From assembly GCA_965226055.1 (NCBI GenBank), contig CBDDCA010000006.1:320001-384000 (forward strand): a stretch of DNA of 64,000 nt, given 5' to 3'. Source of the stretch: Spirochaetia bacterium (GTDB lineage Bacteria > Spirochaetota > Spirochaetia > WTKD01 > G963693115). Below the pieces are notes generated by a model. The model searched no databases. It saw only the letters and a list, made by a program, of their open reading frames with translations, and was not told the DNA's origin. Numbering within the stretch: position 1 is the stretch's first letter; each line of letters begins with the position of its first letter. Positions 32,286 through 45,328 of this stretch are shown here, in pieces. Made by a program: the position numbers and the translations under genes.

Positions 32286-33143
32286 CTACATATTATTGTT
32301 TCTATACTGTACATCATGATTGTCAAATAACATATCTGTTTGCTGTGTTTTTTTCTGTTGAATAAAAGGCAATCTATATTCTTCTTTTATTGTTCCATTA
32401 TTGTGAAGTCTGTCAAGTATCATATTATAATACTCACTATGAATCTCACAGCTTATAAAATTTCTCTGAATGTCTTTACATAATACTAACTCACTCCCAC
32501 TTCCACCAAACAAAATAAAGCAAGTATCATTTTCTTTTGTACAAGACTTTATTAGCATTTCAACAAGAGGCAAAGGAATTTGACACGCATGTAATGTTTT
32601 ATCCTTACTGACATTTTTCACTAAATCAAAGTAAAACCAACTATATGGCATTCTTCCTTTATGTCCATTTCTTATTCTTTCTTTAATTCTTTTATCATCA
32701 GGATTTTGATATGGTACTGAAATATGATCTTTATAGAAATTATTATGTTTTGATTTTGTTGCATGGAGTATACTTCTATGCGCAGTGGTCAATCTTTGTT
32801 TACTATGCCCTACATTAGTATTATATATCCATACATAGTCTTGTATATTATATGCATTATCATCTAAATACTTCACACGTAAATGAGCATTCTGTTTTGG
32901 ATAATTCATCATGAAAAGATTACCTGTATGTTTTAACACCCGCATACACTCTGTAGTAAGAGCAATATACCAATCAATATATTCATTCCATTTTTTTGTA
33001 TATTGTTTCCCTGAATAATTTATACCCACATTATAATCAGGATCACCATATATCATATCTAAAGAATTATCAGGTAATTCCTTAAGAACCTCAAAGACAT
33101 CCTTATTAAAAACTTTGTTTTTATATGCTTCTATACTTCCCAT
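32286..33143 (-). CDS. Site-specific N4-C/N6-A DNA methyltransferase (beta-class motif order)
   Basis: DMIYGDPDYN (motif IV variant), HACQIP..LVEMLI, LFGGSGS (motif I), RNFISCEI. Confidence 0.88.
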   Translation of the reverse strand: MGSIEAYKNKVFNKDVFEVLKELPDNSLDMIYGDPDYNVGINYSGKQYTKKWNEYIDWYIALTTECMRVLKHTGNLFMMNYPKQNAHLRVKYLDDNAYNIQDYVWIYNTNVGHSKQRLTTAHRSILHATKSKHNNFYKDHISVPYQNPDDKRIKERIRNGHKGRMPYSWFYFDLVKNVSKDKTLHACQIPLPLVEMLIKSCTKENDTCFILFGGSGSELVLCKDIQRNFISCEIHSEYYNMILDRLHNNGTIKEEYRLPFIQQKKTQQTDMLFDNHDVQYRNNNM

Positions 33144-33146
33144 ACT

Positions 33147-33935
33147 CTACTTATATGATAGTCTATATTCAGCAGATTTTACAAGAGTTATAGAATCTAA
33201 CTTATATACATCAGTAAATGTATATACATACATTCTAATAATAGAATGCATAGAATCTTTATCCTTCTCTCTTACGAGATAACAAGCATTTATTCCTCTC
33301 ATATCTATATTATTCTCTTTTGCTAACAAATGATAATATAAACAAGGAAGAAAGAGTTGGTATATAGCAAAATCTGTACGAAATCCATTTTTACATTCAA
33401 ATACAGTTACTTGTTTCCTATACTCTGTGGTCATATCAACTTCAATTTGTAATGTGCTAATGTTTATTCTCTCGTCTCCAATAGTATATATACAAGAAGG
33501 TATTTTTGTTCTTTTTGCAAGATATATATTAGGAACTATAGAACTATCATTGTAGAGAAAATGTGATATTATTTTTTGATTCATTCCTACTGATAAAATA
33601 TTACTTTCACTGGTATCGTATTCATTTAATAAACTTCTCTCATATTGCCATAGCTGTATACATTCATTTGGTATAGTTTCAAACATATGATACCATTTTC
33701 TTATTCCTTTTACAAACTTATGTTTACCAGCACCTAAATGAAGCACAAAATAATCCTCTTGTAGTATTTCTTCTGGCAACTTATCAGAACTATCTATTTT
33801 TGTAACATCAAAAGGATTTCCAAAAGAATGGAATTGAGCATATTGTTTTACAAGATCATTATCAAAAACAAAATTATTATCCTTTTTACACTGCCGAAAC
33901 AAAGACAATAATACTTGTTGCTTTTTATTTGCCAT
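33147..33935 (-). CDS. Putative PD-(D/E)XK restriction endonuclease
   Basis: QIEVD...VFECKN...YQLFLP; 3 nt upstream of the MTase. Confidence 0.7.
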   Translation of the reverse strand: MANKKQQVLLSLFRQCKKDNNFVFDNDLVKQYAQFHSFGNPFDVTKIDSSDKLPEEILQEDYFVLHLGAGKHKFVKGIRKWYHMFETIPNECIQLWQYERSLLNEYDTSESNILSVGMNQKIISHFLYNDSSIVPNIYLAKRTKIPSCIYTIGDERINISTLQIEVDMTTEYRKQVTVFECKNGFRTDFAIYQLFLPCLYYHLLAKENNIDMRGINACYLVREKDKDSMHSIIRMYVYTFTDVYKLDSITLVKSAEYRLSYK

Positions 33936-35263: not shown

Positions 35264-36339
35264 AATTTATTTATAATCTCCTGTGTAAAAATATCGGTAG
35301 ATACTGCCTTTGAGGATTCTTCGGAAGGCAATAGATCTACAGTGAGTGCTTTTCTTTCTTGTAATACAGAAAACAATGCTTGTTCTAGCGTATCGGCTGC
35401 TTTTTGTTCTTGAATATCACGCAGTAACATAATACCACACAAAATCAATGCAGTAGGATTTAGCATATTTCTGCCTGCAAACTCTGGAGCTGCTCCATGC
35501 GTAGCTTCGTATACAGTAGCTTGCTGTCCAATGTTTGAGCCAGGAGCAACCCCTAGCCCTCCCATCAGTCCTGCACAAAGATCGGATACAATATCACCAT
35601 ATAAATTAGGGAGCAGTAACATATCGAAACTTTCGGGAACTTGCACCAATTTCATACACAAAGCATCTATGAGTACATGGTCGCATTCTATGTCGTATTT
35701 ACTAGCTTCATCTTTTGCTACTTCCAAAAAGAGTCCATCACTATATTTCATAATATTAGACTTTGTTACTATAGTGAGCTTATTTCTGTTATTACGTGCT
35801 GCATATTCACAACTAAACTTACAAATACGTCTCGTGGCTACTTCACTTATTGCTTTTATTGAAATACCTGCCTCTAAGGGTATTTGCTTTGTATTGAGTG
35901 CATTACATTGACGAATAAGCTGCTGTGTGGCTTCTTTGTGCGCTTCAAACTCTACTCCTGCATACAAATCTTCTGTATTTTCACGTACAATAACTATATC
36001 AATATTTTTTGTATCTCCAAACGGTGAAGGAATACCAGGCAATGTTTTACATGGACGTACACAAGCAAATAAATCAAGTGTCTGTCGCAGTGCAACATTT
36101 ACGCTACGAAACCCTTTTCCTATAGGAGTAATAATTGGCCCCTTGAGTGCCAATTTTGTTTTCTTTATTTCCTCTAATACATGTTCAGGTAAAAGAGATT
36201 GTTCTTTCTCAGCAACAGAGGCCCCTGCTTGCTTTTCTATCCAATGTATGGACGCTCCACTTGCATCAATACATTTTCGCGTAGCTTCTACTAATTCGGG
36301 ACCTACGCCATCCCCTGGAATCAATACTACATTTTTCAT
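35260..36339 (-). CDS. icd: Isocitrate dehydrogenase (IDH/IPMDH family, IDH3-like)
   Basis: IPGDGVGPE, KGPIITP, SVNVALRQ, RENTEDLY, KSNIMK, NLYGDIVSDL; ATGA-coupled to citrate synthase. Confidence 0.88.
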   Translation of the reverse strand: MKNVVLIPGDGVGPELVEATRKCIDASGASIHWIEKQAGASVAEKEQSLLPEHVLEEIKKTKLALKGPIITPIGKGFRSVNVALRQTLDLFACVRPCKTLPGIPSPFGDTKNIDIVIVRENTEDLYAGVEFEAHKEATQQLIRQCNALNTKQIPLEAGISIKAISEVATRRICKFSCEYAARNNRNKLTIVTKSNIMKYSDGLFLEVAKDEASKYDIECDHVLIDALCMKLVQVPESFDMLLLPNLYGDIVSDLCAGLMGGLGVAPGSNIGQQATVYEATHGAAPEFAGRNMLNPTALILCGIMLLRDIQEQKAADTLEQALFSVLQERKALTVDLLPSEESSKAVSTDIFTQEIINKL

Positions 36340-36398
36340 ATTCTTATTATACTGTTTTTTAACTTATCATGTTAGAAAAGATGTATTTTATCTTTCTT

Positions 36399-39200
36399 CT
36401 ATTTATGGTATATGTCAGTATATTCATGAAATTGTTCTCTTACTGCATCTATTTTTTCATTTCGTTCTATAAGTTTGTATTTTTTGATAAACATAGCTTC
36501 TATTTCGTCTCCTAACGGTTCTTTGTTATCATACAGATAATTGTCAATCATTTGCCAAAAAGCATCTTGTTCTAGCTGATATTCTTCACATATCCGTTTG
36601 AGTGCTTTCTTTCGCTCCCCTTCAACAAAGGACTCGTATGCTTCTTCTATGTTGATATCATGTGCTTGTGATGAAACACGCTCTATAAAATTTTCAATAA
36701 GCTGTTTTTTACTTCGTAACTGTGGGTTTGCATCAATGGTGGCATATATTTTTTCTTTGAGTGATTGTTGTTTATCCTTTGGTGCATTGAATAAATCAGT
36801 CAGCAAACGTAGGATGTAGTCTACAGTAATATCATCTTTTTGGATAAGCTGTAGCTCAAAATCTATGTCATCGATAATTGATTCTTTGCTTCTGTTGTTT
36901 TTTGTTTTATCATGTATATCAAGATACTTAGAGGTATAATTTTCAAACTCCTGCTCAGAGAGGGGTATATTATCATCATCCCATGTAAAATCACTAAAGC
37001 CCTTGAGAGTATTTATGACACGCATGAGATCTCTAAATGCTTTAATAAAGGCAAGCGTCTCCTCTTCGCCTTTGAGGGCATCCACATCTTCTACATGTGG
37101 AGCAATAGCAATAAGTGCATCGTAGGCTTGCTTACATTGTTCCACATAATCCTGATATGGCTGTAAAAGAATGGTATCTTTTGCATCTTTGTTTGAAAAT
37201 AAGGCTATAGCCTCATCTGTTTTTTGTTTTAGATTGCGGAAACATACGATATTGCCATGACTTTTTTGCTCGTTATATATACGGTTGGTGCGTGAAAATG
37301 CCTGTATGAGTCCATGATACTGCAGGGATTTATCAACATATAATGTATTCAGGAACTTGCTATCAAAGCCTGTCAAAAACATGTTTACTACTATCAGTAT
37401 ATCTATTTCTTTTTTTCGTACACGTTTTGAAATATTATTGTAGTAATCATAAAAACTGTCAGTACTGTGTGCTGTGTACTGCGTAGTAAACATTTTATTA
37501 TAGTCCTGTATACATGTTTCAAGTGCATCTCTTGCGTAGCTGTTGATAGCTCCTTGATTATCATCACGTACAGAAGCTATATCGGGGATAGTATGTGCAT
37601 TCATTTCTTCTTCATTTTGAGAATAGCTGAACACTGTTGCAATTTTGAGATCATGCTCTTTTTTCTTAAAGAGAGCATAGTAACGAATAAGCACTTCAAT
37701 AGAAGGAACACAGAGTATGGCAGTGTATTGCTTTTTATGTGTTTTTTGTGAATGATGCGTAAGAATATAATCTACTATTTTTTCTATTCGTTTGTCACTC
37801 CCTAAAAATTCCTTTGTATCTATGTCTTCTACTGATATGTCTATGGTATTCTTGCTCTGCTCATTTTCTTTATAGCGTCCTACATATTCCACAGAAAAGC
37901 GTAGCACATTACCATCACGGATAGCATCAACAATGGTATAGCGGTGCAGACTTTTGCCAAATACAGAAGCAGTGGTTTTATCATTTTTTTGTGCGTTTTC
38001 TTCAAATATAGGAGTGCCTGTAAATCCTATAAGCTGATGCTGTGGAAAGAAAGAGGTGATATTTTTATGCGTTACTCCAAACTGGCTTCTATGACATTCA
38101 TCAAAAATACATACTATTTTTTTATTTTTTATGTTTTGTAGCTTTGTTTGGTGTTTCTCTACTGCTATATTGAGTTTTTGAATGGTGGTAATAATGAGTT
38201 TTTTATTGTTATCTTGTAATTGTTGTATGAGATGTTTTGTGTGTTCTGTAGCATCTACACTGCCCTCACTAAAGCTATTAAATTCTTTGCTAGTCTGATA
38301 GTCAAGATCTTTTCTGTCCACTACAAACAGTATTTTATCGATTGTTGCATCTTGCGTGAGAATCTGAGATGCCTTAAACGAGGTGAGTGTTTTTCCACTG
38401 CCAGTAGTATGCCAAATGTAGCCATTGTTGGTGGTGTTCTGCACCGTATTGACAATTTCTTCTACTGCATAAAACTGATAAGGACGCAATACTAACATCT
38501 TTTCTTCAGCTTCTGACAAGACTATGTAGCGACATATCATTTTTGATATATGGCATTTTTCTAAAAAAATTGAGGTAAAATCCTCTAATCGTGATACTAT
38601 GGTATTATCTTTTTCTGCCCAAAAAAATGTTTGCTTAACATTCAAGTCTCTATTGTTTGCATAGTACTTTGTGTTCACTCCATTGCTAATAATAAATATC
38701 TGTATGTATTGAAATAAAGCGGTGTTGCTTCCATACGAATGTTTTTGATACCGAGATACTTGTTGAAAGGCTTCTTTTATTTCTAAGCCTCTGCGTTTTA
38801 ATTCTACTTGAACAAGAGGGAAGCCATTTATCAACAGTGTTACATCATATCGATTATGATATTGTCCTTGTACTGATATTTGCCGACTTACTTGAAAGAG
38901 GTTTTTGCACCAATGCTCGCTGTTTAAGAATCGTATATGTACAGTAGTCCCATCATCTCTATGTATAAGGCATCTGTCACGGAGTATTTTTGCTTTTTCA
39001 AAAATGTTCCCTTTGTGTAAGTGATGGAGTACCTGTGTAAACTCTGCCTTACTGAGACTTATGTCATTAAGTGCTTCTAGTTGTCGTTTTAGGTTTGCCT
39101 TCAGTTCGGCTTCGTTGCTAATAGGTACATACTCATAGCCCATGCTTTGTAGCTGTGATACAAGGCGTGCTTCTAACTCGTGTTCTGATTGAGTGGACAT
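36399..39200 (-). CDS. hsdR: Type I restriction enzyme R subunit (EcoR124-like)
   Basis: RYDVTLLING.PLVQVELK nuclease motif, HTTGSGKT, DECHRSQFG, GFTGTP, MFLTGFD, QAFSRTNR. Confidence 0.96.
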   Translation of the reverse strand: MSTQSEHELEARLVSQLQSMGYEYVPISNEAELKANLKRQLEALNDISLSKAEFTQVLHHLHKGNIFEKAKILRDRCLIHRDDGTTVHIRFLNSEHWCKNLFQVSRQISVQGQYHNRYDVTLLINGFPLVQVELKRRGLEIKEAFQQVSRYQKHSYGSNTALFQYIQIFIISNGVNTKYYANNRDLNVKQTFFWAEKDNTIVSRLEDFTSIFLEKCHISKMICRYIVLSEAEEKMLVLRPYQFYAVEEIVNTVQNTTNNGYIWHTTGSGKTLTSFKASQILTQDATIDKILFVVDRKDLDYQTSKEFNSFSEGSVDATEHTKHLIQQLQDNNKKLIITTIQKLNIAVEKHQTKLQNIKNKKIVCIFDECHRSQFGVTHKNITSFFPQHQLIGFTGTPIFEENAQKNDKTTASVFGKSLHRYTIVDAIRDGNVLRFSVEYVGRYKENEQSKNTIDISVEDIDTKEFLGSDKRIEKIVDYILTHHSQKTHKKQYTAILCVPSIEVLIRYYALFKKKEHDLKIATVFSYSQNEEEMNAHTIPDIASVRDDNQGAINSYARDALETCIQDYNKMFTTQYTAHSTDSFYDYYNNISKRVRKKEIDILIVVNMFLTGFDSKFLNTLYVDKSLQYHGLIQAFSRTNRIYNEQKSHGNIVCFRNLKQKTDEAIALFSNKDAKDTILLQPYQDYVEQCKQAYDALIAIAPHVEDVDALKGEEETLAFIKAFRDLMRVINTLKGFSDFTWDDDNIPLSEQEFENYTSKYLDIHDKTKNNRSKESIIDDIDFELQLIQKDDITVDYILRLLTDLFNAPKDKQQSLKEKIYATIDANPQLRSKKQLIENFIERVSSQAHDINIEEAYESFVEGERKKALKRICEEYQLEQDAFWQMIDNYLYDNKEPLGDEIEAMFIKKYKLIERNEKIDAVREQFHEYTDIYHK

Positions 39201-39338
39201 AGCTTTATTATAGTATACTTACTTTTCTTGCTCCTTTGTCGCATTTAGTCCTTGAATCCGCAGAAATGGCATATAATAACGCCCGTTTAATAGTGAAACC
39301 ACAAAGTGATTGGTTAAAACTTACATAAGAAGCTATTT

Positions 39339-40793
39339 TTACACAAACATCCTTTGTAATAGGCCTTTCTTATACAGCTTTGTAAGTGCTACTTGTTTCT
39401 GTGTGAGTGATATTTTTGTGTCAAGGCTCTGTAAGAAAGAGCCTATCTTTTGTTGTTCTTTTATTGATGCAGGAATTTTTATACGAATAGAACTCATTAC
39501 ATCATTCATCAATTTTGGATTACCCACATATGATACAAATTTCTTTGTTATTGCATTAAGAATTTCTGCAATACATACATTTGCATACCCTTTATCACTT
39601 TTTAACACTCCACATACATTAGTACAGTAAAATTTTCCTTTTCTATAATTCACATCCCCAGCATTAGCTCCATCTGTTGTCCATGTAATACAATTTTCAA
39701 ATAAATATTTATGATAGTATCCCATTAAGCCTTTATTTTTTGTTTGTGAAGAAAAAACAGGATAAACATAGTGATCTGTTTGTATTGGGGATATATCTGT
39801 TTTGGATAAAACAAGCCCTCGTGTTACATAAAATATCTCACCTATTTCCCTCTCTTGCCAATCGGGATACTCGTTTCCTTGTTCGTCCTTAAAGCGTAGC
39901 TCCTGTGAAAAAAGTTTTTGCATGATGCCTTTTTTGTATGACTGCAACAGTACTACTTTTCTTTCAAGGAGCTGTATCTTTGTGTCTACACTCTCCAGAA
40001 AAGAGACTATCTTTTGTTGTTCAGGCAGGGAAGGACACCCTATTTGAAACTCTTTAATATCTCTTGAGTTCACAGATTCAAAGGTACTCCCTTGCGAATA
40101 CTTTTTCCATAGATGCTCAGCGTTGATTAACGCATAGTAGAAAAATGTATAACTTGAAGTACGGATAGCACACATTCCACGCCCTATAATACCATTATGT
40201 ACGGATAAAGCTATATCCCCAACAGGAGCTCGTACGCTCATTAAAATATCATTTACAAAACATCGTTGTGTTATTTCTGTTGTCCAAACACGAGGGACTG
40301 TTCTTCTGTTTTTTATATCAGCATTCCCTTGAAATAATGGCTCTCCTTTTTGAATACCATTATAATGTTCTGATTTAGGAGAACTTCCCATAAAAATCTC
40401 AGCCACTTCTCCTAATTGCTTCTCTTGCCAATCAGGAAAATCAGAGCCATCGTCCTGCTTGAAGCGTATGAGAGGATTTTTCTGCTTGAGAGGAAATGCT
40501 ATTTTATGCGTATCTATTGCCTTTTGAAATTTTTCAGAAATAGCATTCATATCAAGCACATCCACTGTATACGGTAATCGAGATTCTTCAAAATTGTACT
40601 TGAGACGAGCAATAATGACAGTATCAATCTTTTTGTCTGCTTCTAGGGCAAGATCTAAATCAGAGTAATCCTGTGCTTGTCCCTTTACACGACTTCCAAA
40701 TACCCATACTTTACATCCTGCAGGGACATATCTAGACAGTATAGAAGAAACAATATTGAACTCTTGCTTTTTTATATCAAAGTTGAGTTTCAT
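39339..40793 (-). CDS. hsdS: Fusion of an N-terminal MNT nucleotidyltransferase (aa 1-100) and a type I specificity subunit with two TRDs
   Basis: FGSRVKGQAQDYSDLD (GSx10DxD) and VDV, then PLIRF...DWQEKQLGE and two EQQKI...KKG conserved repeats. Confidence 0.93.
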   Translation of the reverse strand: MKLNFDIKKQEFNIVSSILSRYVPAGCKVWVFGSRVKGQAQDYSDLDLALEADKKIDTVIIARLKYNFEESRLPYTVDVLDMNAISEKFQKAIDTHKIAFPLKQKNPLIRFKQDDGSDFPDWQEKQLGEVAEIFMGSSPKSEHYNGIQKGEPLFQGNADIKNRRTVPRVWTTEITQRCFVNDILMSVRAPVGDIALSVHNGIIGRGMCAIRTSSYTFFYYALINAEHLWKKYSQGSTFESVNSRDIKEFQIGCPSLPEQQKIVSFLESVDTKIQLLERKVVLLQSYKKGIMQKLFSQELRFKDEQGNEYPDWQEREIGEIFYVTRGLVLSKTDISPIQTDHYVYPVFSSQTKNKGLMGYYHKYLFENCITWTTDGANAGDVNYRKGKFYCTNVCGVLKSDKGYANVCIAEILNAITKKFVSYVGNPKLMNDVMSSIRIKIPASIKEQQKIGSFLQSLDTKISLTQKQVALTKLYKKGLLQRMFV

Positions 40794-41313
40794 AATATTT
40801 TTCTAGCTTCTCCAAAAGGTATTCGGCTTCTGCTAAAAAAAGAGGTAATTGCTCTACAATATCTATTGCCATAGCTTCATTATATCCATGAGAAGTTTTG
40901 TTTCGGTTGGCTCTATACTCCGACCACACATCCCAGCTGTGTAGGATAATTCCTTTTTCTGCAGCTAAGCGTACTTTATTTTGTAAATCCATATGTTTTA
41001 TATCGCTTGGATTATCAACAATATTTTTTAAATGCCGTGTCATAAATTTCAAGGATAAATCATAGCAATATTCAAAACGCTGAATACAAGAGTCTCGTAT
41101 ATAATCAATCTTTGATATAATTTCTAATAATACATATGATGATATTCTACCCTTGATACCCTTACTTAAAATTTGTTTTTTTAAAAATTCTTCAAATAAT
41201 GCTAATTCTCCAGATTCTTCCTTCTCTTTTAATTTTTGCGCGTCATTTAATACTTCCTTATAAGTAGAGATAGCATTTCTCAGTGGCGTTAAGTCCAGTT
41301 GCTCTTCGTGCAT
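40777..41313 (-). CDS. HEPN-domain toxin (HI0074/HepT-like)
   Basis: RDSCIQRFEYCYDLSLK and RNKTSHGY (Rx4HxY); overlaps the MNT-hsdS gene by 17 nt. Confidence 0.9.
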   Translation of the reverse strand: MHEEQLDLTPLRNAISTYKEVLNDAQKLKEKEESGELALFEEFLKKQILSKGIKGRISSYVLLEIISKIDYIRDSCIQRFEYCYDLSLKFMTRHLKNIVDNPSDIKHMDLQNKVRLAAEKGIILHSWDVWSEYRANRNKTSHGYNEAMAIDIVEQLPLFLAEAEYLLEKLEKYYETQL

Positions 41314-41340
41314 ATTTCACATATTACTATACTTTTCAGA

Positions 41341-42924
41341 TCACAATGGCATTGCAATATTCAGCTGTTCACAAACATCCTTAATGCTGTTGTCTGTCTC
41401 TTGCATTGCCTTTTTTAGCTCTTTTATTTCCACACTTAGCGCCTGTATATCCACAGGCTCTTCTTCATCAAAAGTGTCAACATAGCGTGGTATGTTTAAG
41501 TTATAGCCGTTTTCCTTTATCTCATCCATAGGGGCATTATACGAATATTTATCTATTGCTTGCCTGCTTCTATAGGTATCAATAATTTTGTCTATATGTT
41601 CCTCTGTCAGTGAGTTTTGATTTTTCTTCTTTTCGTACTGCTGTGATGCATCAATAAACAGCACGGCATCATCCTGCTCTCTACATTTCTTAAACACTAA
41701 AATACAGGTAGGAATACTAGTCCCATAAAATATATTTGAAGGCAATCCTATCACTGCATCCAAGTAGTTTTTACTTTCTATCAAGTACTTTCTTATATGT
41801 GCCTCACTTGCACCTCTAAACAACACACCATGTGGCAATACCACTGCCATAATGCCTCTCTCTTCTAAGTGATATATCATATGTTGTACAAACGCAAAGT
41901 CTGCTTTTGTTTTTGGGGCAAGTGTTCCATATGCCGAAAATCGTTCATCAGTCTGAAAAAAAGAACTAGCTGACCATTGAGCACTAAAGGGAGGATTTGC
42001 CACAATAGCTTCAAATTTTTCCGTATGCTGTGGTCGTTCTAGAGTATCCTCCTGTTTAATATCAAAATCACGATAGGATATATCATGCATTATCATGTTC
42101 ATTCGAGCTAAATTGTAAGTGGTACGATTTAACTCTTGCCCATAAAAATTGGAAACATTTGTTACTTCTTTTGCTACCCGCAATAACAAGGAGCCTGAGC
42201 CACAGGTAGGATCATACACTGTAAGCAATTTTTTCTTTCCTGTTGTCACTATCTTTGCTAGTATACGTGATACCTCTTGTGGAGTATAAAATTCCCCTGC
42301 TTTTTTTCCAGCACTTGCAGCAAACTGAGCAATGAGATATTCATAGGCATCTCCCAATACATCTCTTTTATGATTTTGAAAATCAAAATCTACCGCATCC
42401 AAACTTGAAAGTATTCTTACAATAAGCGTATTTCTCTCTTCCACCGTTTTTCCCAGTTTCGTAGAATTAAGATCTAAATCTTCAAAAAGATGTATAAAAT
42501 CATCTTCGCTTTCATATCCCATCGTTGTTGTTTCAATATTACTAAGAATTTTACCTAAATCGTCTAAAATAAACTGGCTTGTAGCATTTTTGTCAGTGTT
42601 ATTTCCACGTCTTAGCAACTGAGAAAATAACTCTTCAGGAAAAAGAAAGTATCCCAACTCATTTATAGATCTTTTCTTTACATTCTTTATAATATCCAAA
42701 TACTTTTCTTTCTCTTTCTCATGAGAATCAACGAGAGAAGTATATGTTATTTCATCTTGCTCCAATAGCTTGTTTGCATGCGCTTCCATCTTTTCAGATA
42801 AATACTTATAAAAGATAAACCCTAGAATATAGTCCTTAAACTGATCAGCATCCATTTTACCTCGTAAGGCATTGGCAATACTCCAGAGCTGTGTCTCTAG
42901 CTGTTTTTTTTCTTGCTCGCTCAT
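41341..42924 (-). CDS. hsdM: Type I R-M methyltransferase subunit
   Basis: LWSIANALRG, GEFYTP, YDPTCGSGSLL, VANPPFS, PHGVLFRG, YNLNIPRYV. Confidence 0.97.
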   Translation of the reverse strand: MSEQEKKQLETQLWSIANALRGKMDADQFKDYILGFIFYKYLSEKMEAHANKLLEQDEITYTSLVDSHEKEKEKYLDIIKNVKKRSINELGYFLFPEELFSQLLRRGNNTDKNATSQFILDDLGKILSNIETTTMGYESEDDFIHLFEDLDLNSTKLGKTVEERNTLIVRILSSLDAVDFDFQNHKRDVLGDAYEYLIAQFAASAGKKAGEFYTPQEVSRILAKIVTTGKKKLLTVYDPTCGSGSLLLRVAKEVTNVSNFYGQELNRTTYNLARMNMIMHDISYRDFDIKQEDTLERPQHTEKFEAIVANPPFSAQWSASSFFQTDERFSAYGTLAPKTKADFAFVQHMIYHLEERGIMAVVLPHGVLFRGASEAHIRKYLIESKNYLDAVIGLPSNIFYGTSIPTCILVFKKCREQDDAVLFIDASQQYEKKKNQNSLTEEHIDKIIDTYRSRQAIDKYSYNAPMDEIKENGYNLNIPRYVDTFDEEEPVDIQALSVEIKELKKAMQETDNSIKDVCEQLNIAMPL

Positions 42925-43031
42925 ATAATTTAGTATAGCACTATATTGTTATCTGTACAGAAAGGATTATATATACGCACGAGTTCAAGCATAAAATACT
43001 ATGAGATAAAAATATGATATAGTATACATAG

Positions 43032-43106
43032 GCTCCCGGTAGCTCAATAGGATAGAGCAATCGCCTCCTAAGCGATAGGTTGCGGGTTCGACTCCCGTCC
43101 GGAGCA
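43032..43106 (+). tRNA. tRNA-Arg(CCT) with a one-base bulge in the acceptor stem; CCA not encoded
   Basis: TAGCTCAATAGGATAGAGC D-arm, ATCGC-CTCCTAA-GCGAT anticodon arm, GGTTCGACTCC T-arm. Confidence 0.92.
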
Positions 43107-43180
43107 TTATGTGGATGCCACAGTATAAGAAACACTTATTATTATGATTATCAAACAATAAAAATAAGAAAGGAACATGT

Positions 43181-45328
43181 ATGAAAAAATTTGTAAAATT
43201 TATTTTTTTTATTATCCTCGTTATTGCAATAGTGGTTGCAATAACACAGTTTAGACAGTACTTAACATTATCGTATATACAATCACAGCTAAGTACTTTA
43301 CAGGCATATATACAAAATAATTTCTGGTATTCTGTGCTTGTTTATTTTTGCATATATGTGCTTGCTACTGCTATTTCAATCCCTGGAGCAATATTACTCA
43401 CCCTCTTGGGAGGAGCATTATTTGGGGCCATATATGGCACTATTATCGTTTCATTTGCAAGCACTATAGGAGCAACAATTTCCTTTATTCTTGGACGCTT
43501 TTTGTTTCGTGGATCCTTAGAGAAAAAATTTCCAAAACAACTTGCAAACATCAACAAAGGAGTACAAAGAGAAGGGGCTAATTATTTATTTGCCTTACGT
43601 CTTGTTCCTGTATTTCCTTTCTTTGTTATCAATCTCCTTATGGGACTTACACGTATACCAGTACTCACTTTTATGATAGTAAGTCAAATTGGTATGTTGC
43701 CTGGCACCATAGTGTATGTATATGCTGGGGGAGCATTATCTACATTACAAAATTTAGGGGATATTGTAAGCCCACAAATATGGCTTGCGTTTGCACTTAT
43801 TGCTACACTGCCTTTTATCTCTAAGTTGATAACTGGTGCTATAAAAAAAGCAAAACTCTATAAAGGACTTAAGAAACCAAAGCAATTTGACACAAATGTT
43901 GCTATTATTGGAGCTGGCTCAGGAGGACTTATTGCTGCGTATATTGCCGCAGCTATCAAAGCAAAACCAGTACTTATAGAAAAAGCCGAAATGGGTGGCG
44001 ATTGTCTCAACCGTGGCTGTGTTCCTTCAAAAGCACTCTTATCAATTAGTAAATATGCCGATGCACACAAAGATTCGGAAGCGGTGGGCATTAGCTATAC
44101 GAAACCAAAAATAAACTTCAAAAAAGTAATGGCAATGGTACACGAAGCTATCAATACCGTAGCTCCACACGATAGTGTAGAACGCTATACTTCACTAGGA
44201 GTACAGTGTATACAAGGTACTGCAGAACTTGTATCTCCATGGGAAGTAAAAGTAGGAGAAAAAACTATAGTGGCAAGAAACATCATATTAGCTACTGGAG
44301 GCTATCCTCGTATCCTTGATATTCCCGGTGCTGACACAGTAACGCAATATACCTCTGATACAATATGGAACATAACTACATTGCCCGAAGAGCTTATCGT
44401 AGTAGGAGGTGGTCCTATAGGATGTGAACTAAGCCTTGCTTTCTCTCGACTTGGAAGCAAAGTAGTGCTTATACAAAGAAACAATCAACTGCTTCCCCAA
44501 GAAGATCCAGAAGTAGGAGCAATAGCAAAAGATACATTACAAAAACATGGAGTACATGTTGTCACTGGCTTTAGTCCAGAACAAATACTCACAAAAAATA
44601 AAAAGCAATACCTACAAATAAGTGTAGACGGAAAAGCAAAGCATGTGCCTTTTACTCACCTCCTTGTTGCAGCAGGAAGACAGGCTGCTACAGAATCGTT
44701 TAAGCATAGTGGACTACAGTTTGAGTATAACAACAATGGCACGCTGTATACAAACGAATATTTACAAACAAGCTATAACAACATATTTGCAGTAGGAGAT
44801 CTGACAGGCCCATATCAATTTACCCATACCGCAGGACACATGGGATGGTATGCAGTAGTAAATGCTCTTTTTGGTGGTCTTAAAAAATTTGCTATTGACT
44901 ATTCATGTGTTCCAGCAGTTACCTATTTAAGTCCAGAAATAGCACGTGTCGGCTTAAACGAGAAAGAAGCAAAAGAACAAAACATAGCATATGAAACAAC
45001 CATATATAAAATGGAAGAACTTGATAGAGCAATAGCCGAACGAAAAACAGAAGGTTTCATCAAGATACTCACAAAACCAAAGAAAGATACTATTCTTGGT
45101 GCTACTGTGGTATCAGAACGAGGAGGCGAAATATTAGGAGAGCTGTTGCTTGCGACAAAATACAAACTAGGGCTTAATAAAATTCTTGGAGTTATCCATC
45201 CTTACCCTACTTTTACAGAATCAGTAAAGGCTACTGCAGGAGTGTGGAAAAAAGCTCATTCCCCTACAAAAGCATTGCAGATGCTTGAGAAATACTTTGC
45301 GAAAAAAGTCAAAAAACAAGAGGAATAG
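43181..45328 (+). CDS. TVP38/DedA membrane domain fused to a pyridine nucleotide-disulfide oxidoreductase (LpdA/MerA-like)
   Basis: LRLVPVFPFFVINL..G.T then IIGAGSGG, GGDCLNRGCVPSK, GGGPIGCE, HPYPT. No MerA C-terminal Cys pair. Confidence 0.92.
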   Translation: MKKFVKFIFFIILVIAIVVAITQFRQYLTLSYIQSQLSTLQAYIQNNFWYSVLVYFCIYVLATAISIPGAILLTLLGGALFGAIYGTIIVSFASTIGATISFILGRFLFRGSLEKKFPKQLANINKGVQREGANYLFALRLVPVFPFFVINLLMGLTRIPVLTFMIVSQIGMLPGTIVYVYAGGALSTLQNLGDIVSPQIWLAFALIATLPFISKLITGAIKKAKLYKGLKKPKQFDTNVAIIGAGSGGLIAAYIAAAIKAKPVLIEKAEMGGDCLNRGCVPSKALLSISKYADAHKDSEAVGISYTKPKINFKKVMAMVHEAINTVAPHDSVERYTSLGVQCIQGTAELVSPWEVKVGEKTIVARNIILATGGYPRILDIPGADTVTQYTSDTIWNITTLPEELIVVGGGPIGCELSLAFSRLGSKVVLIQRNNQLLPQEDPEVGAIAKDTLQKHGVHVVTGFSPEQILTKNKKQYLQISVDGKAKHVPFTHLLVAAGRQAATESFKHSGLQFEYNNNGTLYTNEYLQTSYNNIFAVGDLTGPYQFTHTAGHMGWYAVVNALFGGLKKFAIDYSCVPAVTYLSPEIARVGLNEKEAKEQNIAYETTIYKMEELDRAIAERKTEGFIKILTKPKKDTILGATVVSERGGEILGELLLATKYKLGLNKILGVIHPYPTFTESVKATAGVWKKAHSPTKALQMLEKYFAKKVKKQEE

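Follow-up and report, generated by a model that had tools for sequence, protein, structure and literature searches.

A type I restriction operon in which a predicted antitoxin domain forms the start of the specificity subunit

Why the specificity subunit of a restriction enzyme should begin with a predicted antitoxin is the question raised by one operon in a stretch of Spirochaetia bacterium DNA (64,000 nucleotides; GenBank assembly GCA_965226055.1, contig CBDDCA010000006.1, positions 320,001 to 384,000), here called the window. The window is part of a metagenome-assembled genome of 6 contigs that is 89% complete, and the locus analyzed occupies window positions 36399-42924 on the minus strand. 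An earlier note, made from the letters of the window alone, read there a type I restriction-modification (R-M) operon with the gene order hsdM, HEPN, MNT::hsdS, and hsdR on one strand and with a 17-nt overlap of HEPN and the fusion gene. HEPN is a predicted RNase toxin, and MNT, a minimal nucleotidyltransferase, is its predicted antitoxin. Each gene and the overlap were recovered where that note had placed them. On balance, and with somewhat more confidence than doubt, we favor the view that silencing of HEPN is functionally coupled to the S subunit, such that a type VII toxin-antitoxin (TA) pair has been built into a type IC R-M system and the antidote is tethered to HsdS.

The operon, all of whose genes are on the minus strand, belongs to the EcoR124-like type I R-M systems: the M, S, and R genes are all present and match their family models. 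HsdM, the methyltransferase subunit (41341-42924; 527 aa; TIGR00497, PF02384, and PF12161), scored 469 bits against TIGR00497, for which the cut-off is 243. HsdR, an EcoR124 (type IC-like) family restriction/translocase subunit (36399-39200; 933 aa), scored 531 bits against TIGR00348 (cut-off, 285) and also matched PF04313, PF18766, and PF22679; it has no MNT domain of its own. We call the system type IC-like because HsdR carries the EcoR124_C domain PF12008 (residues 677 to 925; 192.8 bits with Pfam), a domain also present in all four HsdR proteins taken from related operons. A spacer of 27 nt (41314-41340) separates hsdM from the HEPN gene of HI0074 type (40777-41313; 178 aa; PF08780 and TIGR01987), the 3' end of which lies over the 5' end of the fusion gene at 40777-40793. 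The fusion gene itself (39339-40793; 484 aa; PF18765/PF01909 plus PF01420) is followed by hsdR, with 138 nt between the stop codon of the one and the start codon of the other.

How the fusion protein is put together is seen in both its sequence and its predicted structure. Residues 1 to 100 form the MNT domain (40494-40793), residues 101 to 107 a linker of sequence PLKQKNP (40473-40493), and the remainder the HsdS part (39339-40472), with two target-recognition domains (TRDs) and conserved helices. In Pfam, the MNT part matched PF18765 at 41 bits and PF01909 at 28 bits over residues ~17 to 97, and the HsdS part contained two PF01420 Methylase_S stretches at 159 bits. An AF2 model built from an alignment of 38 fusions (mean pLDDT, 88.7; pTM, 0.70) showed an α/β MNT fold at ~9 to 96, a lower-confidence linker where the pLDDT falls to 74 at residues 101 to 110, two TRDs, and long helices at 256 to 295 and 444 to 482. 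Thus, the two PF01420 stretches and the two modeled TRDs bear out the earlier statement that HsdS keeps both. When the N-terminal ~100 residues were compared with known structures by Foldseek, HI0073 (1no5) was found at 44 to 45% identity and a TM score of 0.88 to 0.89, along with the MNT antitoxins 8xeo, 8xeh, and 7bxo. When the C-terminal 380 residues were compared, the top matches were the HsdS structures 1ydx and 1yf2, and 7bst of EcoR124I matched as well. Moreover, the PADLOC S-subunit model PDLC03138 (485 positions) aligned over both parts, with MNT residues 6 to 95 falling on profile positions 3 to 91. Since that model covers the MNT part, fused S subunits are already in PADLOC.

Whether MNT and HsdS are made as one chain depends on the junction. 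The earlier note saw no separate ATG there, and indeed, neither ATG nor GTG nor TTG occurs in frame between M82 and V130 of the fusion or within the linker. There is one candidate internal start, a GTG at V130 that follows AGGAG, and the same letters encode the conserved LGEV of HsdS. A stop codon or frameshift separating MNT from HsdS was looked for in contigs of sequencing runs and in a relative, and none was seen. In a genome of the same genus (G001, locus L001), hsdM, HEPN, and the fusion follow in the same order as in the window; the fusion there is also 484 aa, is 94% identical without gaps, and has an uninterrupted frame, and the HEPN is 91% identical and overlaps the fusion by 11 nt. 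Between 40380 and 40800, Logan contigs from four runs of four studies were free of insertions and deletions, and single contigs spanned the junction at position 40470 in X5, X6, and X7, each a run from another study. The remaining run, X1, is the best holder of the locus and may be the source sample. Loose contig ends clustered at 40468-40470, where unfused hsdS paralogs stop resembling the fusion gene, and because the paralogs diverge there, homology to HsdS begins at about residue 108.

A misassembled or misannotated gene would be the simplest account of a fusion, as the genome was put together from a metagenome and the Logan assemblies break up the hsdS region. We give this account next to no probability. 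It is contradicted by the 94% identical relative, by bridging contigs from three further studies, and by 39 other protein clusters of the same architecture, and it is countered further by 69 long representatives with that architecture and by the 485-position PADLOC model. We note that the genome of the window has about seven hsdS loci and that the Logan contigs show many joints between conserved hsdS regions. Residues 248 to 484 of the fused HsdS (39339-40052; TRD2 plus the C-terminal helix) are 90% identical to an hsdS at G000:C4:28138-28848. These observations suggest either TRD exchange among hsdS paralogs or merely a tangled assembly graph.

How far the fusion extends beyond the window was addressed in protein databases, and the architecture proved to be widespread. 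The earlier note had proposed searching for fusions of NTP_transf to Methylase_S and counting the HEPN genes upstream; that search returned 39 other protein clusters that share the MNT::HsdS architecture and, among the fused metagenome loci described below, an HI0074-type HEPN upstream in 22 of 23. When residues 1 to 125 of the fusion were used as the query of a cluster search against target proteins of 266 to 847 aa, 40 of the 41 matches (the window's own protein included) carried PF18765 plus PF01420, and their MNT parts were 41 to 58% identical. In an alignment of 38 fusions, G33, S34, D45, and D47 were invariant. Moreover, the junction residues F100, P107, R110, F111, and W122 were nearly invariant across fusions, and the TRDs could not be aligned. 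Working S subunits that exchange specificities would be expected to show just such a conserved junction next to variable TRDs.

A second search, with phmmer over 1.84 billion representatives, gave 3845 matches at an E value of ≤1e-3 and 743 at ≤1e-10. Among the best 150 of these, 82 carried PF01420 and 46 were no longer than 135 aa, and all 69 proteins of 400 to 650 aa matched the HsdS profile; the query of this census holds ~20 HsdS residues and so favors fused forms near the top of the list. Many of the long matches of lower rank aligned over the MNT part only. Long open frames turned up in just three of 41 related genomes: that of the window, that of its congener, and another from the same order, which has two loci. 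The distribution of the fusion is patchy, as is that of defense genes generally. In the same-order genome, one locus (L116; G008:C2:672501-675854) contains, one after the other, hsdM, a first HEPN, a 69-aa remnant of an MNT, a second HEPN, MNT::hsdS, and hsdR; the second fused locus is on another contig.

The company kept by the fusion was examined in metagenome contigs, which were scanned with alignment A2 of the N-terminal part; the best 80 of 261 relatives were classified with window proteins as phmmer queries. The 80 loci comprised 13 complete fusions, 10 MNT open reading frames (ORFs) that ran past MNT length into the contig end, 2 other fusions, and 55 standalone MNT genes of ~100 aa. 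An HI0074-type HEPN gene was directly upstream, and usually overlapping, both in the 22 fused loci already mentioned and in 48 of the 55 standalone loci, with six of the seven misses at a contig end. Across the 80 loci, HEPN and MNT as a rule either overlap or closely adjoin. Because HEPN is upstream in nearly all of the 80 loci, HEPN-then-MNT is the rule of this subfamily. Where the contig left room, all 19 fused loci had hsdM upstream and all 11 complete fusions had hsdR downstream, though in one of these (L043) hsdR is split into three ORFs. Thus, the observation confirmed at the window, an HEPN gene and an MNT::hsdS fusion inside a type I operon, extends well beyond it. As to the two other fusions, one joins MNT to a Cro/C1-type helix-turn-helix (HTH) in a protein of 226 aa (L102:281-961) and one joins MNT to ~190 unassigned residues in a protein of 290 aa (L058:545-1417), each with HEPN upstream.

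What the HEPN gene encodes is clear at the level of family. It scored 83.3 bits against PF08780 NTase_sub_bind (cut-off, 31.8) and 64.8 bits against TIGR01987 HI0074 (cut-off, 55.8), and having passed both curated cut-offs, it is a member of the HI0074 family. As a single sequence it matched the structure of HI0074 (1jog) at an E value of 2.8e-13, and a profile of 27 HEPNs matched 1jog at 2e-32 and the HEPN toxin of Legionella pneumophila (8xdj) at 5e-30. The motifs reported earlier are present in both partners: RNKTSHGY, an Rx4HxY motif, in HEPN (R137-N-K-T-S-H142-G-Y144; 40882-40905) and GSx10DxD in MNT (G33-S34-x10-D45-L-D47; 40653-40697). Within the 27 HEPNs, Q78, F80, E81, R137, T140, and Y144 were invariant, and H142 was present in 26. 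We note a private insert of ~40 aa at HEPN residues ~33 to 72 (41098-41217), between the first and second helices; it is present in the window and the same-genus copy and absent from the other 25 aligned HEPNs.

The closest characterized system is a type VII pair of L. pneumophila (8xdj, 8xeo, and 8xeh), described in PMC11586414; for this and the other literature cited here by identifier, our statements refer to excerpts of the source. In that pair, Q44 and E47 of HEPN form a Mg-dependent active site, and the cognate MNT poly-AMPylates a tyrosine, Y105, which silences the metal-dependent RNase (PMC11586414). Our alignment with 8xdj places Q44, E47, and Y105 on Q78, E81, and Y144 of the window's HEPN. 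The pair resembles ours in that the HEPN is of the same family and the MNT is ~100 aa without a long C-terminal helix; it differs in that the antitoxin is a free protein in an account that mentions no R-M operon, the word restriction being absent from its text (PMC11586414), whereas the MNT of the window is the N-terminal domain of HsdS, and in that only the window's HEPN has the private insert. Thus, the features of a type VII pair, an RNase with the Rx4HxY motif and an adjoining nucleotidyltransferase with GSx10DxD, are both present in the window. We class the system as a variant rather than a canonical type VII member because the antitoxin is not a separate small protein.

The genes of the operon are under purifying selection. 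Measured against the same-genus copy, dN/dS was 0.077 for hsdM, 0.18 for each of the two parts of the fusion, MNT and HsdS, and 0.35 for HEPN, the last being based on few changes (17.5 nonsynonymous and 11.5 synonymous). In the genome of the window, which is incomplete by about a tenth, neither a second PF08780 gene nor, with the 125-aa query, another MNT of this subfamily was found. The fused MNT is therefore the only candidate antidote. The HEPN matched none of the PADLOC families, as that database has no model for it. A complex prediction with two copies of HEPN and MNT residues 1 to 105 gave a score of 0.00 and a mark of 0.32, but its controls did not fold, and it weighs on neither side of the question of binding.

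One could instead regard the two proteins not as toxin and antitoxin but as a two-protein nucleotidyltransferase, in which HEPN binds the substrate and HsdS recruits the enzyme to DNA or the R-M complex, where it nucleotidylates a different target, for instance, a phage protein, a nucleic acid end, or an R-M subunit. The closest solved relatives of the window's MNT and HEPN, HI0073 and HI0074 of Haemophilus influenzae (1no5 and 1jog), were in fact deposited as a two-protein nucleotidyltransferase, and the family name in the PDB and NCBIfam, nucleotidyltransferase substrate-binding subunit, preserves this older view; unlike our system, they are two separate small proteins with no R-M fusion. 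Fusion to a DNA-reading subunit would also fit a modifier that acts near DNA. HEPN domains domesticated as substrate binders, however, typically lose their catalytic residues (Anantharaman et al. 2013; PMC3710099), and here the acceptor tyrosine and the arginine of Rx4H are invariant in the 27 HEPNs, with H142 lacking from one. Moreover, experiments have shown the close structural relative from L. pneumophila to be an RNase toxin AMPylated by its MNT (PMC11586414). We consider a nucleotidyltransferase with another target quite improbable.

How the tethered pair might work can be proposed from these parts; toxicity and AMPylation are inferred from the homologous L. pneumophila pair, and so, with less to go by, are binding and above all the trigger proposed. 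The HEPN RNase would be made as a free protein and its cognate antitoxin solely as the N-terminal domain of HsdS. MNT::HsdS, alone or together with HsdM and HsdR, would bind HEPN and AMPylate Tyr144 beside the Rx4H site, and the RNase would fall silent. Should the supply or integrity of the S subunit fail, HEPN that is newly made or de-AMPylated would cut RNA, and growth would stop. Candidate causes of such failure are host shut-off, attack on the R-M complex during infection, proteolysis, and deletion of hsd genes. Through one of its own subunits, the R-M system would thereby acquire a backup role in abortive infection or addiction. RNase silencing would be tied to the type IC S subunit because MNT::HsdS is the predicted antidote of the HEPN upstream.

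Whether the tether matters or is an accident is harder to decide. A selfish HEPN-MNT addiction pair might have landed between hsdM and hsdS and become fused by loss of the MNT stop codon, without any cross-talk with restriction. Such a fusion could persist since a stop and a start would have to be gained together to reverse it and any break in MNT would be lethal; at most the pair would stabilize the locus against deletion. Standalone pairs are indeed common, both in the metagenome loci (55 of 80) and in 107 plasmid records, a distribution typical of addiction modules. Moreover, fused MNTs are neither longer nor shorter than standalone ones. In a quick tree of the MNT domain on 103 columns, 22 of 24 fused MNTs clustered with one another (SH-aLRT, 94), and two unfused copies joined them, so that much of the spread could follow from a single event.

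The choice of fusion partner argues for selection of the tether. Accidental fusions should have varied partners, but all 69 long relatives are HsdS-like and the only other recurrent partner found is HsdR of the same R-M type. In two metagenome loci (L044 and L071), MNT::hsdS is followed by an embedded gene, a second HI0074-type HEPN, and then MNT::hsdR (second HEPN plus MNT::hsdR at L044:7944-10339 and L071:7378-10361), and the first ~110 residues of that HsdR are an MNT domain with GSx10DxD. The two HEPNs of one operon are 26 to 27% identical and the two MNTs alike only around the catalytic motif, and thus the two pairs are distinct. A search with this N terminus returned 26 clusters of 1081 to 1309 aa in which PF18765 is joined to the complete set of HsdR domains; among them, proteins of Salinimonas sediminis and Marinomonas transparens bear no other name than type I restriction endonuclease subunit R, EcoR124 family. 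It also returned 12 further MNT::HsdS clusters. No MNT::HsdM was seen in the loci examined, and no search was aimed at it. Since both S and R are partners, fusion of an antitoxin to type I subunits arose at least twice, and a distant MNT::HsdS in L075 may represent a third origin. The embedded gene encodes a Fic/DOC protein in L044 (6499-7629) and in L071 (6578-7381) a protein with a weak match to Abi_C (E value of 0.0015, below the cut-off).

Three further observations speak against a passenger pair without cross-talk. First, F100, P107, R110, F111, and W122 are conserved at the junction while the TRDs turn over. Second, no fused form was present among 107 plasmid matches, all of which were standalone pairs. 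Third, one locus shows that fission is possible. At that locus (L055:216-2669), a PDDEXK_2 transposase gene stands between a standalone MNT that groups with the fused copies and an hsdS that has a start of its own; the arrangement looks like a fusion secondarily split by insertion. The case for a tether selected rather than accidental thus lies in partners limited to type I subunits, independent fusions to S and R, a junction conserved next to changing TRDs, and the lack of the fused form from the plasmid matches. A selfish module, or a fusion that is merely difficult to undo, would nevertheless account for much of these data. A pair that is a mere passenger is a reading we take seriously and think unlikely.

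Coupling of HEPN silencing to the S subunit, the reading we favor, thus starts from what is observed of anatomy, families, residue conservation, purifying selection, operon recurrence, and the restriction of partners to type I subunits. Several points weigh against it. Since AMPylation is catalytic, silencing may go on whatever the condition of the R-M complex, even with the enzyme tethered. The tree allows a single origin for most of the fused MNTs, and the census that gave the uniform partner was tilted toward fused forms. One locus (L046) keeps the fusion without an HEPN gene, there being no room for one between hsdM and the fusion, and thus the fusion can persist without the toxin. In addition, L055 shows that MNT and hsdS can separate again, and the GTG at V130 with its AGGAG could in principle give some untethered, N-terminally shortened HsdS. 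The MNT scored 42.4 bits against the NCBIfam MntA equivalog NF047752, under the cut-off of 60, and we therefore file it as HI0073-like, not MntA. The number of changes behind the HEPN ratio is also small.

Tight linkage to hsdR is likewise dispensable. In the same-genus genome, homology to the window in L001 (7456-9600) stops ~46 nt past the stop codon of the fusion, and fragments of an IS30-like transposase come next. Loss of hsdR from that genome was considered and is ruled out by an intact, 95% identical HsdR encoded at G001:C1:2277890-2280682, far from hsdM-HEPN-MNT::hsdS. Because an intact ortholog is elsewhere in the genome, the operon is split, not reduced; because it is far away, tight linkage with hsdR is not required. 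Together with L046, tolerance of this separation also suits a passenger pair.

What would release the toxin is the most conjectural part. The earlier note suggested a guard, a special case of coupling to the S subunit, in which Ocr, ArdA, or a Stp-like protein binds M2S1 or R2M2S1, disturbs MNT, frees HEPN, and aborts the infection, much as PrrC does with EcoprrI. The anatomy and families read in that note are borne out. Of its proposal, the tethering to R-M has gained strong comparative support from the recurrence of the operon in many unrelated contigs, the HsdS-like nature of all 69 long relatives, and the parallel MNT::HsdR; a trigger by anti-restriction proteins or by loss of hsdS is conjecture. 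The operon shares its type (type IC, EcoR124_C) with the host system of PrrC, and the two subunits found with an antitoxin, S and R, are those responsible for DNA binding and translocation. Other toxin-like genes occur in the same operons, namely, the Fic gene of L044 and the weak Abi_C match of L071, and such logic has been proposed for R-M-linked HEPN domains generally (Anantharaman et al. 2013; PMC3710099). Because AMPylation leaves a covalent mark, however, a bound inhibitor would not unsilence toxin that already exists, and release would need either a de-AMPylase or fresh synthesis of toxin. Moreover, the HEPN has no counterpart of the ATPase sensor domain of PrrC. We regard a guard sprung by anti-restriction proteins as doubtful.

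A broader form of coupling may also be considered. Perhaps a widespread, as yet undescribed class of type IC systems serves as its own antidote, with S, and sometimes R, each carrying the antitoxin for a private HEPN upstream, such that removal, degradation, or jamming of a subunit leads to RNA cleavage and abortive infection; we advance this idea tentatively. With no greater assurance, we speculate that its triggers could include anti-restriction proteins, host shut-off, proteolysis during restriction alleviation, and deletion or recombination of hsd genes. If true, the arrangement would amount to a subunit-by-subunit guard of an innate immune enzyme, made of parts unlike those of PrrC. As the models overlap, the probabilities we attach to the different readings are not additive to one.

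Why the arrangement is of interest follows from what is lacking elsewhere. To our knowledge, how bacteria sense that a front-line defense has been disabled is an open question, for which we know of few worked examples: PrrC with EcoprrI, PARIS, and some retrons. We also know of no natural trigger established for type VII TA systems. In this operon, a restriction enzyme and a predicted suicide RNase are linked through the protein chain itself, as the candidate antidote is a domain of the S (or R) subunit. If the coupling is real, type VII TA systems would gain a concrete physiological context, and an explanation would be at hand for the extra domain in proteins databased merely as restriction endonuclease subunit S or subunit R. 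Should the pair be a passenger after all, the locus would still be a clear case of a selfish module welded to a host gene.

In its workings, the system appears to combine a type VII HEPN-MNT pair with an R-M-embedded HEPN back-up such as PrrC, and it departs from each known relative. PrrC is encoded by an HEPN-superfamily RNase gene inside a type IC hsd operon (EcoprrI) and is kept latent by R-M proteins (PMC3632139 and PMC12707154). The HEPN gene of the window is likewise embedded in a type IC hsd operon, between hsdM and hsdS. PrrC, however, has an N-terminal ABC ATPase and no antitoxin gene, and its silencing is noncovalent and released by Stp of phage T4, whereas the 178-aa HEPN shows PF08780 alone and its predicted enzyme antitoxin is covalently part of HsdS. 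As the protein has no ABC ATPase domain, we do not count it as a member of the PrrC family.

HepT/MntA of Shewanella oneidensis (SO_3166/SO_3165; 5yep, 7bxo, and 6m6u), a more distant counterpart, is similar in that an HEPN RNase with Rx4HxY is neutralized by an MNT, and the MNT fold matches. It differs in belonging to another HEPN subfamily, as the HEPN of the window gave no match to the HepT-like family PF01934, and in that its MntA has an extra C-terminal helix (PMC11586414). Moreover, most HEPN-MNT pairs have the order MNT-then-HEPN (PMC3710099), whereas the window and nearly all of the 80 related loci are HEPN first. DarTG2 of enteropathogenic Escherichia coli is also a TA pair inside a type I hsd operon, the two forming one defense island; it differs in consisting of two free proteins between hsdS and hsdR that act on DNA, and the excerpted account describes no fusion to an R-M subunit (PMC12255303). 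Finally, the PADLOC model PDLC03138 (Specificity_I) is similar in that it spans the MNT and HsdS parts, and differs in that it bears the mere label of type I specificity subunit, with no function assigned to the extra domain.

Whether such fusions have been described before was also addressed. In a 2013 survey of R-M-linked HEPN domains, the portion consulted reports fusions of HEPN to nuclease, helicase, or ATPase subunits and to no others (PMC3710099), and MNT goes unmentioned in the excerpted part of a 2024 preprint that catalogues genes embedded in type I R-M systems (bioRxiv 10.1101/2024.01.29.577857). Neither MNT::HsdS nor MNT::HsdR is described in the corresponding parts of PMC4621449, PMC12839542, and PMC2701414. 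The literature searched, a scope that leaves supplements and most subscription journals outside, held no description of either fusion, in agreement with the statement in the earlier note that no characterized example was known.

How the genes of the operon are expressed was considered by a scan of 36200-43200, which gave 22 promoter-like sites where 29.1 were expected and three terminator-like sites where 3.0 were expected, none on the minus strand within the operon. The spacer between hsdM and HEPN is polymorphic between strains. Different 17-nt insertions occur there in Logan contigs, behind 41318 in run X7 and behind 41327 in runs X5 and X6, and they might affect translation or an internal promoter.

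The surroundings of the operon contain two further features of note. A tRNA-Arg(CCT) gene, called by ARAGORN, is on the plus strand at 43032-43106, 107 nt from the hsdM start codon; it provides context and is outside the system. At 32286-33935, where G+C drops to 28% next to citrate synthase, a DNA methylase (PF01555) adjoins a DUF6996/DUF6997 protein, and the two are probably a small acquired type II-like R-M pair.

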